Below are positions 2,307-6,761 of a stretch of DNA of 56,144 bases, piece after piece. The translations under genes and the position numbers were made by a program. This DNA is from a virus (Duplodnaviria > Caudoviricetes): IMG/VR virus record IMGVR_UViG_3300042197_002821, positions 1 to 56,144 of that record; one strand, 5' to 3'. The notes under the pieces were generated by a model. That model was not told the origin of the DNA and made no database searches. It was given only the letters and a program-made list of their open reading frames with translations. The first letter of the stretch is position 1. Every line of letters begins with the position of its first letter.

Positions 2307-2335
2307 TTTACAATCCGAGTTTTATATCTTATAAT
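2307..2335 (+). promoter_or_regulatory. sigma70-type promoter
   Basis: TTTACA-17-TATAAT upstream of rpoZ. Confidence 0.75.
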
Positions 2336-2356: not shown

Positions 2357-2560
2357 ATGGCGAGAATTACTTCAGAAAAAGCTGTAGAGATCATGGGCAA
2401 TAAATTCGAGTTGATCCTAGTGGCAGCGGCCAGAGCCAGAGAACTAGCTCGAGGAAGTAGACCTCTAGTAGAATCCACCAATGGTACGGTAGTCACGGCT
2501 CTCAGAGAAATCGAAGCAGGAAAGATAGACAAGAAAGAATACCTAAGGAAAAGAAAATGA
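2357..2560 (+). CDS. rpoZ: RNA polymerase omega subunit
   Basis: MARIT...[17 protein letters not shown]...[11 protein letters not shown] omega signature; AGGA SD before ATG 2357. Confidence 0.92.
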
Positions 2561-3120
2561 AAATCAGCCTCAGAAAAGCCAACGCCATCCAGACATCGAT
2601 CAACGATGCGGTCCGTGCCCTAAGCTTCGAGACCACCGTGCGGATCAACGAATTCGAAAATCCCGAGCAGAAAATCTCAGAGGCACGAGCGGAATTCAAT
2701 CGCAATTTGGATAGAAAGATCGATCTGGATCTAGTATTGTACAGCATCCGCAAATCAGTGGGCGCTGCCAATCACACATCAGGCATCGACGGTCGTCTAG
2801 CCGATGTGGCCAGGATCGAAAAACAGATCCAACTGCTGACTGGGTTTTCCAAAGACCGAGTCAGAGAGTCTGCGTCAGTGATCTCAGGTAAACTGGAAAA
2901 GATCAAAGCTCGCAAAGAAGATTCTTTCTACGGGCGCGAAGCAGAAATCGCTACATCGATCTTTGACCGAGCGGATGTTACCAGATTCAAAGAGTCATTG
3001 GCTGCCCTGCGCAAAGAAAAACAGCGCATCCAGGACGAGATCCTTGAGCTCAATGTCCGCACTGAGATCACCCTCAGCGATGACGAAGTGGCCATACTCA
3101 AGGTAGACGGCATCGTTTGA
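2557..3120 (+). CDS. Coiled-coil protein resembling the DIP1984 family
   Basis: Helical 187 aa; [11 protein letters not shown] and C-terminal [17 protein letters not shown] pattern, compared from memory with DIP1984 proteins. Confidence 0.6.
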
Positions 3121-3125
3121 TTTCG

Positions 3126-3199
3126 TGCGGGATATTGAAATGGCATCATGGAGGTCTCATAAGCCTCCGTTCCTGGTTCGACTCCGGGTCCCGCTACCA
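3126..3199 (+). tRNA. tRNA(CAU), Met or Ile2; 1:72 mismatch
   Basis: gaggt-ct-CAT-aa-gcctc; tgcggga/tcccgct; CCA; lacks the three G-C anticodon-stem pairs of fMet. Confidence 0.85.
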
Positions 3200-3233
3200 G
3201 TTTTGCCAGTTTCGTAAAACTGGCCGGTGACAT

Positions 3234-3467
3234 GGGGGGTAGATGAGGATAGACACACCGTGTTTGGCCAAAAAGCCAAAGACACCTTTGACGACTGCGA
3301 CTGAAAATCGCGACGTGCTTGTGTGCGCCGATTCATACCTAACATAGATTGTCATTTGCTGATCGGAAATAGGCAGGCCTCTGTGGATTGTAGATTGAGG
3401 TTTGTTTGGGGAGTTTCTCGATGAGAGCTCCTGCTTGCATGTTGTCCGGTCTATTACTTGACCCTCC
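3234..3467 (+). ncRNA. Candidate ~235-nt structured RNA
   Basis: Ends pair (ggggggt/accctcc; gatagac/gtctatt); several internal hairpins; no credible ORF. Confidence 0.6.
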
Positions 3468-3486
3468 TTGGATCCGTTCATAACCG

Positions 3487-3515
3487 TTGACAACTCCTTA
3501 AAAAGATCATATACT
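3487..3515 (+). promoter_or_regulatory. sigma70-type promoter
   Basis: TTGACA-17-TATACT. Confidence 0.85.
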
Positions 3516-3521
3516 CAGTGT

Positions 3522-3624
3522 GTGACCGTAAGCAAACGGGGAAAGCTCTACGTCGTTAATCAGCGATGTCAGGAAGGGACTAGGCCATTGGCCGTCTTTG
3601 GGGGTTCGAGGCCCTCCGGTCACA
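3522..3624 (+). ncRNA. tRNA-like RNA without a canonical anticodon loop
   Basis: gtgaccg/cggtcac acceptor, D-like arm, ggggg-ttcgagg-ccctc T arm, extended middle arms, no CCA. Confidence 0.65.
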
Positions 3625-3628
3625 GTAG

Positions 3629-3703
3629 CTCTCCGTAGTTCAATGGATAGAACAAGACACTCCTAAGGTTTAGATCCTGGTTCGATTCCGGGCGGAGAGG
3701 CCA
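3629..3703 (+). tRNA. tRNA-Arg(CCU)
   Basis: ct-CCT-aa loop; ctctccg/cggagag; CCA. Confidence 0.88.
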
Positions 3704-3735
3704 CCCAATTTTATTTTTCGAGAAAGGAGGCGAAT

Positions 3736-4344
3736 ATGCCCTCAGTTTGGCTAGTATCAGACACGCACTTTGGTCACGCTGGTGTATGTCGCTTCACTAG
3801 GAATGACGGCGTGACCAAACTTCGTCCCTGGACTGATCCAGATGAAATGGACGAAGCCATGATCGCTGCTTGGAACGATCGTGTACGCCCGAACGACAAA
3901 GTCTATCACCTAGGCGATGTCGTGATTAACAGGAAAGCTATGAAGACATTGGGCCGCCTTAACGGCGACAAGGTGCTTATCCGTGGCAATCACGATATCT
4001 TTCGTGACGACGAATATCGCCAATACTTCCGTGAACTCCGTGCCTACCATGTGATGAATGGCATGATCTTGAGCCATATTCCCGTCCACGAAGCCAGCTT
4101 GGGTCGATTTGGGGTTAACATCCACGGACATCTGCATGCCAATCGTGTATTAAAGGCTCGTGGTATCGATGCCCGGACAGGAGAAACTCTGTACAGCGAT
4201 GAAGTCGACCCTCGTTATCACTGCGTCTGTGTGGAACAAACTCCGGACTTCGCGCCCATACTGTTCGAAAATGTCATAAAGAGGATCCAAGCCGAAGGTG
4301 GGCAAGTTGGATTCCGGAATGGCAATGGACCGGTTGTTGACTAA
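3736..4344 (+). CDS. Calcineurin-like metallophosphoesterase
   Basis: SDTHFGH, LGD, GNHD, SHIP, HGHLH motifs. Confidence 0.9.
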   Translation: MPSVWLVSDTHFGHAGVCRFTRNDGVTKLRPWTDPDEMDEAMIAAWNDRVRPNDKVYHLGDVVINRKAMKTLGRLNGDKVLIRGNHDIFRDDEYRQYFRELRAYHVMNGMILSHIPVHEASLGRFGVNIHGHLHANRVLKARGIDARTGETLYSDEVDPRYHCVCVEQTPDFAPILFENVIKRIQAEGGQVGFRNGNGPVVD

Positions 4345-4394
4345 TTAAATAGGTAGTATAATACACTTATGCTACCTATTTCAAAGGAGAAAAA

Positions 4395-4535
4395 ATGGCC
4401 GCAGCTTCAGGAAATAAAAAAACCCATACCACTGTTTTTAAAAGGACCAGCCAAGGTGGCCGGCGTCCTAAAACCAGCACGATGAACAAGAATCAATCAC
4501 GGAGTTTTAAATCTTATAGAGGACAGGGGCGATAA
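4395..4535 (+). CDS. 46-aa basic peptide ending KSYRGQGR (absent from ORF track)
   Basis: AAGGAG SD; MAAASGNKKTHTTVFKRTSQGGRRPKTSTMNKNQSRSFKSYRGQGR; stop overlaps next ATG. Confidence 0.75.
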   Translation: MAAASGNKKTHTTVFKRTSQGGRRPKTSTMNKNQSRSFKSYRGQGR

Positions 4536-5071
4536 TGGCCATGCATTTGATGGTAGATCTAGAGACTCTAGATACCAAAGTTTCAGCCACCGTACTGACC
4601 CTAGGTGCCGTGAAGTTCGATCCATTCAGCGACAGTGACATGAAAGAACTATATCTCAGGGTGGACATCGACAGCCAAGACAGTCTAGGTTGCACGGTTT
4701 CTGAAGATACCATCAAATGGTGGAAGAACCAAAACACTGATATCATGGAAGAAGCATTCAACCCCAGAGATCGCATACCAGTCCAAGAAGCCATGAACCA
4801 GTTCCATAGTTTCGCTTGGAACTGCGATCAGTTTTGGAGCCATGGATCTAGCTTCGACCTAATGATACTACAAAACATCTACGACCGACTAGGACGGACC
4901 TATCCTTGGAATTTCTGGCAGCTCAGAGATACCCGAACTCTATTTGATCTCGCAGAGCCAGAGATGCCGCAGGACAGCAAGCATAACGCCCTGGAAGACG
5001 CACGGAGACAAGCTGTGGGTGTGAGAAATTGCTTCCGTAAACTAAACTACAAAGGAAAAAAATGGAACTAG
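4535..5071 (+). CDS. DEDDh 3'-5' exonuclease (DexA/Rv2179c-like)
   Basis: MVDLETL, FD, RDTRT, HNALEDA motifs. Confidence 0.88.
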   Translation: MAMHLMVDLETLDTKVSATVLTLGAVKFDPFSDSDMKELYLRVDIDSQDSLGCTVSEDTIKWWKNQNTDIMEEAFNPRDRIPVQEAMNQFHSFAWNCDQFWSHGSSFDLMILQNIYDRLGRTYPWNFWQLRDTRTLFDLAEPEMPQDSKHNALEDARRQAVGVRNCFRKLNYKGKKWN

Positions 5072-5603: not shown

Positions 5604-6244
5604 CAACGTCCCAAGAAAAAGCAGAACTCTTAGAAGCTATTAAAGCAGAAAAACATCGCTACGAGATACATCTCACCGGCTATGGCGGGGAGATCGTCTT
5701 GGGTCGTATCACCAAAGAACAGTACGAATTCTGGAAGGACCGAGAAGACCTCGACGAGTTCACTGGTGACTGGGACAACGAAATGGAGATCCCCGAAGAG
5801 ATGAAAATGTTTTCCAGCGGTAACTGGTACGAGTGCGATGATCTCGCACACGAAAACGGCTGTGAATTTTCTAACGCCTGCTGGGTCACTGTTTATGACG
5901 AAGACAACAACGAAGTTTTTACCTGCCCATTAGATTACAACGAATTAGAAAATCGCGGAGTTTTCGTAGAAGGTATAGCCAATGACGAATACCGAGTGCA
6001 ATGGGATTCTGATGCCAAGCATTATTTCTTTGGACAGAACTTCGAAAAAGGCACGTTCCAGACCTACGAAGTAGAAGACTACAAATTCGATCCTGCCAAG
6101 CTCAACTTCCGAGTCAACGATATCGAAGGTTGGACCTTGGTCACTGGCGTCAGCTACATGAGCCAAGAACTAGACGATACCGGGGGGTACTCTACTACCG
6201 GTAAGAGCTGTGAATACCGAGTTTATGCTGTGGACGATGAATAA
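5600..6244 (+). CDS. Acidic hypothetical protein
   Basis: 214-aa ORF, ATGA coupling. Confidence 0.8.
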   Translation: MTTSQEKAELLEAIKAEKHRYEIHLTGYGGEIVLGRITKEQYEFWKDREDLDEFTGDWDNEMEIPEEMKMFSSGNWYECDDLAHENGCEFSNACWVTVYDEDNNEVFTCPLDYNELENRGVFVEGIANDEYRVQWDSDAKHYFFGQNFEKGTFQTYEVEDYKFDPAKLNFRVNDIEGWTLVTGVSYMSQELDDTGGYSTTGKSCEYRVYAVDDE

Positions 6245-6761
6245 GCCGTCCTCTAGCCCAGACCGACATACCTTCCAAAAACAGGGTTATGTCAAACGCT
6301 GTGAAGAAACGGGTGAGTCACCCAACCAAGATTATCTAGACATGTTTTCTAAGATCTTGGAAGATCAAAAACACAAGTTCGATGATCCCAAGGACAGAGA
6401 AAACAATCTCGAGTATGATCTTCTAACCACAGACTGGATCCTAGAAAAAGTACGAGGTAGCGACAGCTACGCACAGAATCTCTATGCGGCACTGTGCAAC
6501 ACAAAATGGCAGAACAAGGCCGTGTGGCCCACTCTAAAAGAACAAAAGTGGGGCTGTTCTTGGAGATACGCAGGTGGCATCATCGCAGACATGCAGGAAA
6601 AAGGTGATTACATCAACTGGTATTGTTCTGGCATCGGCGGGGGTTTAGGTAATGGCGATGAAGATAATACCAAGGGCTATGTCAGTGAGGGCACAGTCAC
6701 TGATGAGATCGAGAGTGATTTGGATCGCTTGGGCTGGACGATCAGTCCATGCAAAGATTAA
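6237..6761 (+). CDS. Hypothetical phage protein
   Basis: ORF with YAQNLYAALCN and SWRYAGG segments; ATG 6237 overlaps upstream stop. Confidence 0.8.
   Translation: MNKPSSSPDRHTFQKQGYVKRCEETGESPNQDYLDMFSKILEDQKHKFDDPKDRENNLEYDLLTTDWILEKVRGSDSYAQNLYAALCNTKWQNKAVWPTLKEQKWGCSWRYAGGIIADMQEKGDYINWYCSGIGGGLGNGDEDNTKGYVSEGTVTDEIESDLDRLGWTISPCKD

Follow-up and report, generated by a model that had tools for sequence, protein, structure and literature searches.

The plus strand of the window, which is the whole 56,144-nt stretch analysed here (IMG/VR virus record IMGVR_UViG_3300042197_002821), carries at positions 3200-3479 a discrete folded RNA of about 270 nt, the fold of which, as the comparison of related sequences shows, is under selective maintenance. 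In its unpaired tracts the RNA displays UUG triplets repeated with a period of 7 nt, and it is accompanied by the gene of a 187-aa protein. The carriers of this pair are large freshwater phages; those known are mostly IMG/VR contigs of 4-400 kb, many of them fragments, with tRNA genes close by. We infer that the protein binds the RNA, and we consider it slightly less than evenly probable that the two form a dedicated ribonucleoprotein in which the protein reads the UUG heptads. The region is organised as follows:

2307-2335, plus strand: promoter-like TTTACA-17-TATAAT (sequence)
2357-2560, plus strand: small RNA polymerase omega (Rpb6)-like gene, first of the operon (Pfam PF01192, E 5.6e-15)
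2557-3120, plus strand: gene of the 187-aa all-helical protein, predicted DIP1984/DUF6847-like fold (ORF, AF2)
3126-3199, plus strand: tRNA-Met (CAT) (ARAGORN; Rfam tRNA, 46 bits)
3200-3479, plus strand: structured RNA, made up of a 5' hairpin and a closed multi-helix core (profile and covariance-model matches)

When the window was searched with a covariance model built on the core of the RNA, positions 3230-3471 matched with 177.6 bits (E 1.6e-48). The RNA is present in a single copy, the only further match to the core model reaching 6.4 bits. Either a consensus sigma-70 promoter or a tRNA 3' end defines where the RNA begins. Indeed, among 78 distinct cores, 41 have a 12/12 TTGACA-16/17-TATAAT promoter with the -10 box ending just before AGUUUUG, and 58 have a promoter score of 9/12 or better. 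In the window, the encoded 3' CCA of tRNA-Met directly abuts the first base of the RNA, and a tRNA ends at most 15 nt before the RNA in 20 of the instances listed that were found by the RNA motif alone. Because consensus promoters or tRNA ends sit at the same 5' point, the RNA is taken as a discrete molecule. The plus strand was assigned since G-U pairs are frequent on it, as at the first P2 pair, which is GU in 52 of 64 sequences. Taken by itself, the window sequence is weak evidence for an RNA (the MFE z-score of 3200-3486 is -2.0 on the plus strand and -1.3 on the minus strand), and the weight comes from the relatives. One sequencing run, presumed to be of RNA but possibly of DNA, gave contigs of a relative over 2306-2976 and 3073-3397; these contigs show no ends.

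The RNA family is absent from Rfam 15. A search of 8 kb with E up to 1 gave no family match within 3200-3520, a 441-nt search found none at E up to 10, and in four related loci the gathering score was reached by tRNAs only. The original prediction of a non-coding structured block outside the described Rfam families is borne out by these searches and by covariation in 64 sequences. A conserved ORF was looked for in 14 sequences and none was found; the database records examined hold no annotation of the RNA. Among candidate identities, tmRNA was excluded by ARAGORN, and RNase P, SRP, 6S and hammerhead RNAs, considered through their conserved motifs, were dropped as Rfam gave no match. The AUG at 3243 was also rejected as a start codon: it is AUU, AAG or ACG in many relatives, and hairpin length shifts the frame. 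Few large non-coding RNAs have a fold that is strongly backed by comparative evidence, and each so far has opened a line of work. A 2023 catalogue (PMC10690425) reports 8495 short viral RNA candidates from IMG/VR; because these measure 29-151 nt, at most pieces of the phage RNA may be among them.

The fold was evaluated in alignment A2 (64 sequences, less than 93% identical), in which 38 consensus pairs were scored. Of the cells in these pairs, 95.9% are paired vs. 31-45% in controls with the partner slid over 1-3 columns; double compensatory changes occur in 31 of the 38 pairs, and no measure of covariation was reached by shuffled alignments (0/500). In the divergent set A6 (15 sequences), the alignment of which was fitted to the model, 92.3% of cells are paired vs. 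42-47% after sliding, with double changes in 34 of 35 pairs. The helices tested, those other than the variable hairpin at 3410-3431, retain their pairing through compensatory changes. The elements of the RNA are:

3205-3224, plus strand: H0, 5' hairpin of 8 bp with loop CGUA (sequence)
3232-3240, plus strand: P1, outer closing helix, 5' strand; partner 3461-3469 (covariation)
3241-3247, plus strand: conserved internal loop AGAUGAG, facing ACUUG at 3456-3460 (invariant residues)
3248-3254, plus strand: P2, inner closing helix, 5' strand; partner 3449-3455 (covariation)
3260-3285, plus strand: P3 hairpin (covariation in A1 and A6)
3297-3311, plus strand: P4 hairpin with a 7-nt loop (covariation)
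3317-3378, plus strand: P5 (3317-3322/3373-3378) enclosing P6 (3328-3331/3363-3366) (covariation, model alignment)
3346-3359, plus strand: heptad sites 1 and 2 (G 3351, 3358), in the P6 loop (sequence)
3378-3405, plus strand: heptad sites 3-6, NNNUUGN four times, with invariant G 3383, 3390, 3397 and 3404 (alignment)
3408-3431, plus strand: variable hairpin within the heptad array (variable distance from site 6 to site 7)
3432-3445, plus strand: heptad sites 7 and 8 (G 3437, 3444) (invariant in 64/64, spacing 7 in 64/64)
3449-3469, plus strand: near-invariant motif GUCUAUUACUUGAC, containing the 3' sides of helices P2 and P1 (alignment, covariation)

In H0, pairing between 3205-3212 (GCCAGTTT) and 3217-3224 (AAACTGGC) is perfect, and both sides change at 7/7 pairs in A2. 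The core is closed by P1, where GGGGGGT (3234-3240) complements ACCCTCC (3461-3467); in A2, 96.9% of its cells are paired, with both-side changes at 9/9 pairs. Next to it, the G, A, A and G of the internal loop AGAUGAG are invariant in 64 sequences. In P2, GATAGAC (3248-3254) complements GTCTATT (3449-3455); all its cells (100%) are paired and the helix is mostly conserved, with double changes in 1/7 pairs in A2 and in 7/7 in A6. Both sides change at 4/4 pairs of P3 in A6, and double changes affect 5/6 pairs of P5 and 4/4 pairs of P6 in A2. The loop of P4 reads CUGAAAA in the window and CUUGAAA in most relatives. The 5' hairpin, the two closing helices, the internal hairpins and the heptamers lie where they had originally been placed; the nested helices P5 and P6 had been overlooked. 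The 3' strand of P6 might instead pair with UCCRGUC close to P2; this candidate pairing tracks P6 in the common types and fails in at least five divergent sequences.

The other conserved feature is the array of heptads. Eight UG dinucleotides, mostly within UUG and located in unpaired tracts, are invariant in 64/64 sequences of A2, and every heptad step measures exactly 7 nt in 62-64 of the 64 sequences. At sites 3-6 the G is invariant (64/64) and the three steps measure 7 nt in 63, 64 and 64 of the 64 sequences. The distance from site 6 to site 7 ranges from 7 to 35 nt; it is exactly 7 in 4/64, which gives six contiguous heptads, and six consecutive UUGNNNN units are also kept in a divergent subfamily. 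The window contains a single stretch that fits a TTG pattern of four heptads with one mismatch, and 36 of 100 shuffled sequences contain this pattern as well. The 7-nt periodic units first noticed at 3346-3359 and 3385-3405 are indeed present; three further sites (G 3383, 3437 and 3444) had escaped notice.

The RNA and the gene of the 187-aa protein were found together whichever of the two served as the seed. In the protein-seeded set (the best 80 of 243 viral loci), the RNA lies on the same strand in 79/80 loci. Three gene orders occur: the RNA is upstream in 54/79, 35-206 nt behind the gene in 15/79 and at least 445 nt behind it in 10/79. The sole locus devoid of the RNA stops 321 nt past the gene. 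That homologous genes are accompanied by a similar RNA, as the original prediction required, is borne out. In the other direction, the motif GUCUAUUACUUGAC alone retrieved at least 118 viral stretches. Among the matches listed, 115 RNA-seeded instances were counted, 108 of which have the same-strand gene, the remaining seven lying at locus ends; four chance matches to the motif have neither the RNA nor the gene. In the 108 instances listed, the RNA is upstream on the same strand in 99 and ends at most 80 nt before the start codon in 58; gaps of 23-36 nt are found in relatives. The pair is kept in L011 and L019, where no tRNA is present within 3 kb. Since the proteins encoded at RNA-bearing loci are 42-57% identical to that of the window (98% within its own cluster), inherited synteny accounts for part of this linkage, a point against a ribonucleoprotein.

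These positions bear on an alternative that we regard as unlikely, namely that the RNA acts in cis as a 5' leader or operator, controlling translation of, or read-through into, the 187-aa gene (in some loci preceded by the omega-like gene), for instance by autoregulation involving the protein or in response to a ligand. The upstream location, both in the RNA-seeded instances listed (99/108) and in the best-80 protein-seeded loci (54/79), agrees with a leader, which explains the 58 short distances to the start codon as well as a ribonucleoprotein does, a point that counts against the latter. Moreover, a second promoter between RNA and gene has a perfect -10 box in only 14 of 78 cores and, because a good second promoter is found in this minority only, co-transcription is likely in the rest. 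However, the gene precedes the RNA in the window and in 25/79 protein-seeded loci, where the sequence and fold of the RNA are nevertheless kept. In those loci the RNA cannot be the leader of the gene, since it follows it; the constant position directly upstream expected of a leader is not observed. A tRNA also intervenes between gene and RNA in the window and in several class-C loci inspected, and the coincidence of the RNA 5' end with a tRNA 3' end in 20 instances listed rather suits a processed stand-alone RNA. Finally, inspection of A2 by eye revealed no conserved pairing with the ribosome binding site.

The RNA could also act in trans on a host factor, with the 187-aa gene being only a conserved neighbour. 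It would then be a sponge for an abundant host protein that binds single-stranded RNA, or a decoy in tRNA or RNA-polymerase biology. We give this reading a low probability, comparable to that of a leader. The perfect host-type promoter is in line with it, as is the location within tRNA arrays, tRNAs being found in 111 of 118 loci among the matches listed (1164 altogether). Other orphan phage RNAs, GOLLD, ROOL and the stable RNAs of the T4 tRNA cluster, also adjoin tRNA genes. Like them, the RNA described here is phage-borne, sits in or beside tRNA clusters and has a complex fold, which here covaries; it is much smaller than GOLLD or ROOL, matches none of their Rfam models, has a constant protein neighbour and carries the heptad motif. 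In our own reading, the P4 loop CUUGAAA has the size of an anticodon loop with U at position 2, and the non-basic character of the 187-aa protein would also fit a trans-acting RNA. Against a mere neighbourhood, the adjacency of RNA and gene outlasts three gene orders and the loss of nearby tRNAs, whereas that of the omega-like gene does not. The RNA is separated from the 187-aa gene by 81-400 nt in 41 of the RNA-seeded loci listed, and in L133, one such locus that was inspected, an omega-like homologue occupies the gap. Such a homologue is present in 71/143 loci; in 39 protein-gene instances its end lies no more than 40 nt before the 187-aa gene. Adjoining in these 39 only and missing from about half of the loci, the omega-like gene was rejected as a third fixed member; its synteny with the pair is loose.

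The AF2 model of the 187-aa protein is all-helical, with a mean pLDDT of 91.7. Its top match among 350,542 PDB chains is 3KDQ (probability 1.00, E 7e-3, TM 0.44/0.53, rmsd 10 A), from C. diphtheriae, which we take to be locus DIP1984. Among named proteins, the closest likeness is to Atlas models of DUF6847-bearing clusters (TM 0.52-0.63). From these models the protein is predicted to have the DIP1984/DUF6847 fold. The resemblance to DIP1984 proposed in the original prediction thus holds for the predicted fold (3KDQ and the DIP1984/DUF6847 clusters) but not for HMM membership. The window protein has no match to Pfam PF20935 or NCBIfam NF038048 at E up to 1, and a family search of the window record for DIP1984/DUF6847 gave 0 matches. 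One of 17 members matched NF038048 (E 0.0042) and one of 17 matched PF20935 (E 0.0053), both far below the cut-offs. The protein is also some 35 residues longer than DIP1984/DUF6847 proteins, which (PF20935, NF038048) are annotated "septicolysin" as well. At least 2967 homologues (clusters) exist, none functionally named, and all but one are "hypothetical protein" or unnamed. The accessible parts of the literature on DIP1984, septicolysin and 3KDQ yielded nothing on function, and a literature search for DUF6847 found no publication.

The protein is predicted to be a homodimer, in keeping with the earlier suggestion of an oligomer on periodic sites. The homodimer score is 0.71 vs. 0.01 for the best control, with a partner pLDDT of 89 and runs that agree in at least 97% of contacts. 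The mark for this score is reached by 20/30 solved one-chain pairs and by 1/23 solved single chains, and likeness to 3KDQ may account for the pass.

In the dedicated ribonucleoprotein that we favour, a homodimer of the DIP1984/DUF6847 fold would bind along the UUG array, with one binding surface per 7 nt, and the helices would keep the array accessible and in phase. Transcription from a perfect host-type promoter would supply the RNA early and in excess. The RNA would then serve either as a scaffold on which the protein oligomerises or to keep the protein inactive until needed, by a logic akin to that of repeated-site sponge RNAs or of HutP/TRAP-type periodic triplet operators. More tentatively, the pair could represent a new class of phage ribonucleoprotein, in which a protein of this fold assembles in a 7-nt register along a UUG array held by RNA; such assembly is likened to that of nucleocapsid proteins, which count nucleotides. 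Counting against a ribonucleoprotein, the protein is not basic (pI 5.6-8.8 in 17 members) and family-profile searches find no known RNA-binding domain in it. If true, the proposal would provide a large orphan superfamily of phages, plasmids and bacteria with its first function, namely sequence-periodic RNA binding, and would reveal a new phage RNA, abundant and early, that lies within tRNA arrays. It bears on why large phages retain these arrays and on what else the arrays express. The leads are unusual, a strictly periodic motif together with a constant protein neighbour from a family that bears no functional name, and one binding test could assign a function to RNA and protein together.

Two known systems are instructive. 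CsrB and RsmZ are sponge or scaffold RNAs with repeated GGA motifs in hairpin loops, bound by dimeric CsrA. The phage RNA resembles them as a folded RNA with a strong promoter, many short unpaired copies of a motif and a candidate dimer as partner. It differs in that the motif is UUG with a strict 7-nt period and that the partner is a helical phage protein encoded by a neighbouring gene; neither sequence nor Rfam models relate the phage RNA to CsrB and RsmZ. HutP reads NAG triplets with 4-nt spacers and TRAP reads GAG/UAG repeats; both are ring-shaped, beta-rich proteins, and the short leaders that they bind govern termination in a single operon. What the array shares with these operators is a conserved triplet that recurs in single-stranded RNA at a fixed short interval, which at 7 nt equals that of HutP. 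In contrast, the array is here enclosed in a closed fold of about 235 nt, can sit behind the gene and goes with a helical protein.

The pair is very probably not a type III toxin-antitoxin system, although such a likeness had been proposed; that the RNA is an antitoxin neutralising a toxic protein is very improbable. The promoter-RNA-protein order of most loci and the short repeated units do recall ToxIN, CptIN and TenpIN. However, the tandem repeats of 34-36 nt are missing, TRF finding no tandem array at a score of 30 or more in 3150-3550 and the units measuring only 7 nt. The protein is all-helical, with 3KDQ as its best PDB match and no ToxN/AbiQ/CptN-type match in Pfam, NCBIfam or PHROG. 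No terminator-like site separates the RNA from its neighbours, none being found on the plus strand over 2557-3736. The likeness therefore fails on repeat structure, toxin fold and terminator. Furthermore, a motif scan located the RNA in viral contigs, and a 21-nt motif of the RNA had 0 exact matches in the bacterial and archaeal genome collection, the usual home of such systems. Least probable of all is that there is no RNA gene and that the block is a minus-strand small protein gene (a 99-aa ORF, 3194-3493, spans it in the window) or a region with a regulatory role as DNA (hexamers resembling promoters lie on either side of it and extend into it), since that ORF is not conserved and has no family match, the longest frames vary in strand, frame and length among 14 relatives, length changes among relatives are located in hairpins, and it is for the plus strand specifically that the G-U pairs and compensatory changes are seen.

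Behind the RNA, the window continues with another unit:

3487-3515, plus strand: promoter-like TTGACA-17-TATACT, start of the next unit, outside the RNA (sequence)
3522-3624, plus strand: tRNA-shaped element with a long variable arm (Rfam tRNA 23.4 bits, cut-off 29 bits)
3629-3703, plus strand: tRNA-Arg (CCT), downstream of the tRNA-shaped element

The element at 3522-3624 has a cloverleaf-like fold (z -2.3) and is conserved in five aligned relatives; the promoter-like site is conserved jointly with it.

Distant homologues of the 187-aa protein occur in cultured phages. That of Pseudomonas phage PA5oct, 26% identical, leaves no room for an adjacent RNA, and the covariance model, run with filters off, found no RNA beside the PA5oct or Brevundimonas phage homologues; ncRNA003 of PA5oct, 4 kb from the homologue, does not match the RNA model either. 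In the PA5oct record, the homologue bears an ESI-MS/MS note. Because this mark denotes virion proteins in the PA5oct paper, it suggests a structural rather than an RNA-binding role. Both this note and the negative searches beside the distant homologues count against the ribonucleoprotein reading. In three Brevundimonas phages, the gene is followed by an unannotated gap of about 312 nt, 94% identical among them. In these three near-identical sequences, the gap has a closed predicted fold (z -3.1) and contains two copies of a 14-nt unit in which UG recurs every 7 nt.

The helices and heptads (UUG-type 7-nt units) that the original prediction described for this structured RNA (window 3200-3479, + strand) were all found on the sequence where it had placed them, and the core (3230-3471) has the predicted size, about 235 nt from P1 to P1. 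The RNA, whose helices are named H0 and P1 to P6, and its neighborhood are organized as follows.

Features of the RNA and its surroundings (window coordinates)
2307-2335: promoter-like site, upstream of the omega-like gene
2357-2560, +: RNA polymerase omega (Rpb6)-like gene (Pfam Rpb6, E 5.6e-15), before the 187-aa gene
2557-3120, +: 187-aa gene, after the omega-like gene
3126-3199, +: tRNA-Met, between the 187-aa gene and the RNA block
3205-3224: H0 hairpin
3232-3240 with 3461-3469: P1
Between P1 and P2: invariant internal loop, AGAUGAG facing ACUUG
3248-3254 with 3449-3455: P2
Inside the closed core: P3 and P4 hairpins, and P5 enclosing P6
3408-3431: variable hairpin splitting an unpaired array
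3487-3515: TTGACA-17-TATACT site, 3' of the RNA block
3' of that site: tRNA-shaped element, then tRNA-Arg, then phosphoesterase gene

Taken alone, the helices and heptamers of the window are unremarkable. The block has a fold z-score of -2.0, and shuffling the window 100 times reproduced a four-heptad TTG pattern in 36 cases. The case rests on comparison with relatives. RNAalifold, applied to 14 distinct sequences, predicted 42 pairs, and compensatory changes occur at 30 of these. The main alignment retains 64 of 86 distinct sequences, those at least 93% identical to one already kept being dropped. It contains 38 consensus pairs in seven helices; 95.9% of the cells are paired vs. 31-45% in controls with the 3' partner slid 1-3 columns, and both sides have changed at 31 of the 38 pairs. 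On each of five measures, none of 500 shuffles matched the observed value. A divergent set of 15 sequences, biased toward the model because it was aligned to it, is 92.3% paired vs. 42-47% after sliding, with double changes at 34 of 35 pairs. Length variation among relatives falls in hairpins. G-U pairs are frequent on the + strand (52 of 64 sequences at the first pair of P2, for example). On the opposite strand they would turn into A-C mismatches, which places the RNA on the + strand. No conserved open frame was found across the relatives compared.

The heptads are the most conserved feature of the RNA family and, of its features, the hardest to account for by folding alone. A G is invariant in the 64 sequences at 3351, 3358, 3383, 3390, 3397, 3404, 3437, and 3444, preceded by an invariant or near-invariant U, usually UU. 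The 7-nt spacing within heptad groups is kept in 62, 63, 64, 64, and 64 of 64 sequences. The distance from the sixth to the seventh site varies from 7 to 35 nt and is set by the intervening hairpin; in the four of 64 sequences that have no hairpin it is exactly 7 nt, so that six heptads fall in one register. The divergent subfamily follows the same pattern, with, for instance, six consecutive UUGNNNN.

There is good support for a new family of structured RNAs, one tied to this protein family. The protein-RNA pair had been put forward as undescribed, and three Rfam searches returned no described family matching the RNA; neither Rfam 15 nor a literature search yielded an account of the RNA. Fragments of the RNA may be present in a 2023 catalogue of IMG/VR RNA candidates, which range from 29 to 151 nt in length (PMC10690425).

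The tie to the 187-aa gene appears from either starting point. Scanning viral contigs with the protein as seed recovered 21 loci, with proteins 43-52% identical to that of the window. A profile search found the block in 18 of them, a broader profile added L011 and L019 (both confirmed by the covariance model), and L012, the last of the 21, breaks off 321 nt past the gene. Among the best 80 of 243 protein-seeded loci, 79 carry the RNA on the same strand (RNA matches of 49-236 bits), as expected if it accompanies homologous genes; the single miss is the truncated contig L012. The RNA lies upstream of the gene in 54 of these best 80, 35-206 nt behind it in 15, and at least 445 nt behind it in 10; a tRNA stands between gene and RNA in the window and in several of the last group. 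Conversely, an 18-nt motif from the 3' part of the RNA matched at least 118 viral stretches. Of the 118 matches listed, 114 contain the RNA, complete or truncated where the locus ends; the other four, with neither RNA nor protein gene, are chance matches. A 21-nt version had no exact match in the bacterial and archaeal genome collection. The matches listed comprise 115 RNA instances, in which the start codon of the gene follows the P1 end within 80 nt in 58 (mostly 23-36 nt) and after 81-400 nt in 41 (at the one such locus inspected, L133, an omega-like gene fills the gap). The gene is upstream of the RNA in nine and was not seen in seven, all of them sitting where the locus ends on the side in question. 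RNA and gene also stay paired at L011 and L019, which have no tRNA within 3 kb. The omega-like gene, by comparison, adjoins the 187-aa gene in just 39 protein-gene instances, and about half of the loci lack it. The RNA-seeded and protein-seeded sets share contigs and cover one protein clade (42-57% identity to the window protein, 98% within its own cluster). That RNA and gene stay adjacent in three gene orders suggests, without proving it, that RNA and protein are functionally coupled. One related locus, L077, has two RNA copies (3543-3812 and 6064-6342), each with a 187-aa gene of its own behind it; the whole pair is therefore duplicated.

A perfect TTGACA-16/17-TATAAT promoter, with its -10 box ending just before AGUUUUG, precedes 41 of 78 distinct cores, and 58 of 78 score at least 9/12. 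Most remaining cores, including that of the window, begin directly after a tRNA, which ends at most 15 nt before the RNA in 20 instances. That two routes, promoter or tRNA, lead to the same 5' end would argue for a discrete RNA molecule. On the 3' side, no terminator-like site follows the RNA on the + strand, and none lies on that strand between 2557 and 3736. The conserved 3' motif includes TTGAC, followed by a matching perfect -10 box in just 14 of 78 cores.

The likeness of the protein to the DIP1984 family is suggested by its predicted fold and falls below threshold in profile searches. No family in Pfam, NCBIfam, or PHROG exceeded threshold, NF038048 and PF20935 each being matched by one of 17 members at E about 0.005. 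The AF2 model is confident (pLDDT 91.7) and nearly all-helical, and its best match among 350,542 PDB chains is 3KDQ, an uncharacterized C. diphtheriae protein (probability 1.00, E 7e-3, TM just 0.44/0.53); ESM Atlas matches point the same way. The family counts 2967 members or more, and no functional name is attached to any of them, all but one being "hypothetical protein" or unnamed. Modeling supports a homodimer: the prediction scored 0.71 vs. 0.01 for the best control. Of 30 proteins solved as one-chain pairs, 20 reached this mark, against one of 23 solved as single chains. Contact agreement between runs was at least 97% and partner pLDDT 89. This pass may owe something to likeness to 3KDQ. 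The pI is close to neutral; several basic positions are conserved among members.

How RNA and protein might work together is more tentative. The strict 7-nt period beside a helical protein predicted to be dimeric makes it most economical to suppose that the two would form a particle in which the protein reads the heptads, a reading that we favor while rating it somewhat short of probable. The commonest gene order would suit a cis-acting leader; this conflicts with the order in the window itself, and we consider such a role unlikely. Equally unlikely is a stand-alone RNA directed at a host factor: promoter and tRNA setting agree with it, and the constant protein neighbor is left unexplained. 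The type III toxin-antitoxin likeness first proposed is very improbable, three features that define such systems being missing. A coding or DNA-level element, contradicted by the covariation, is hardly credible.

Both Brevundimonas jumbo phages and the group of Pseudomonas phage PA5oct have distant homologues (25-29% identity). In PA5oct, no gap adjoins the homologue, whose record bears an ESI-MS/MS note, a mark that the PA5oct paper gives to virion proteins. In three Brevundimonas phages, roughly 312 nt with no annotation follow the homologue (L142 3598-3910, L143 2098-2408, L144 2098-2411; 94% identity). This conserved gap is predicted to fold into a closed structure (z -3.1), and it contains a duplicated unit of 14 nt in which UG recurs at 7-nt steps. 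R1, the covariance model of the core, did not match it, and three near-identical sequences cannot show covariation; the gap may be an analogous RNA, as a lead only.

The window, a 56-kb fragment, comes from a virus record rated 16% complete by CheckV, and related contigs reach 212-400 kb. The first 3.7 kb of the window contain 22 tRNA genes, 20 of them densely packed on one strand at 1-2291, with consensus-like promoters inside the array (TTGACT-17-TATAAT at 1551-1579, for example) and an extra Rfam tRNA match at 815-875 (31.6 bits) missed by ARAGORN. The tRNA-Met lies 5 nt after the 187-aa gene stop; about 220-345 nt separate them in several relatives (L001-L013). Of 143 related loci, 71 carry an omega homologue, in many cases immediately ahead of the 187-aa gene; omega copies are generally unusual in phages. 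Among the downstream genes (3736-5071) are two for nucleic-acid-end enzymes, a calcineurin-like phosphoesterase (phrog_547, E 7e-48) and a 3'-5' exoribonuclease of the Rv2179c-like type (Pfam E 3.5e-40); both adjoin the tRNA array. Finally, window 3487-3626 is a conserved unit made up of its own TTGACA-17-TATACT site and a tRNA-shaped RNA of about 103 nt, whose acceptor stem has 7 bp and whose T arm carries GGTTCGA; its variable arm is long and its anticodon arm odd. It is not called by ARAGORN and scores 23.4 bits with the Rfam tRNA model (cut-off 29 bits); it is kept in five relatives, where the acceptor and T stems show compensatory changes and an encoded CCA forms the end.
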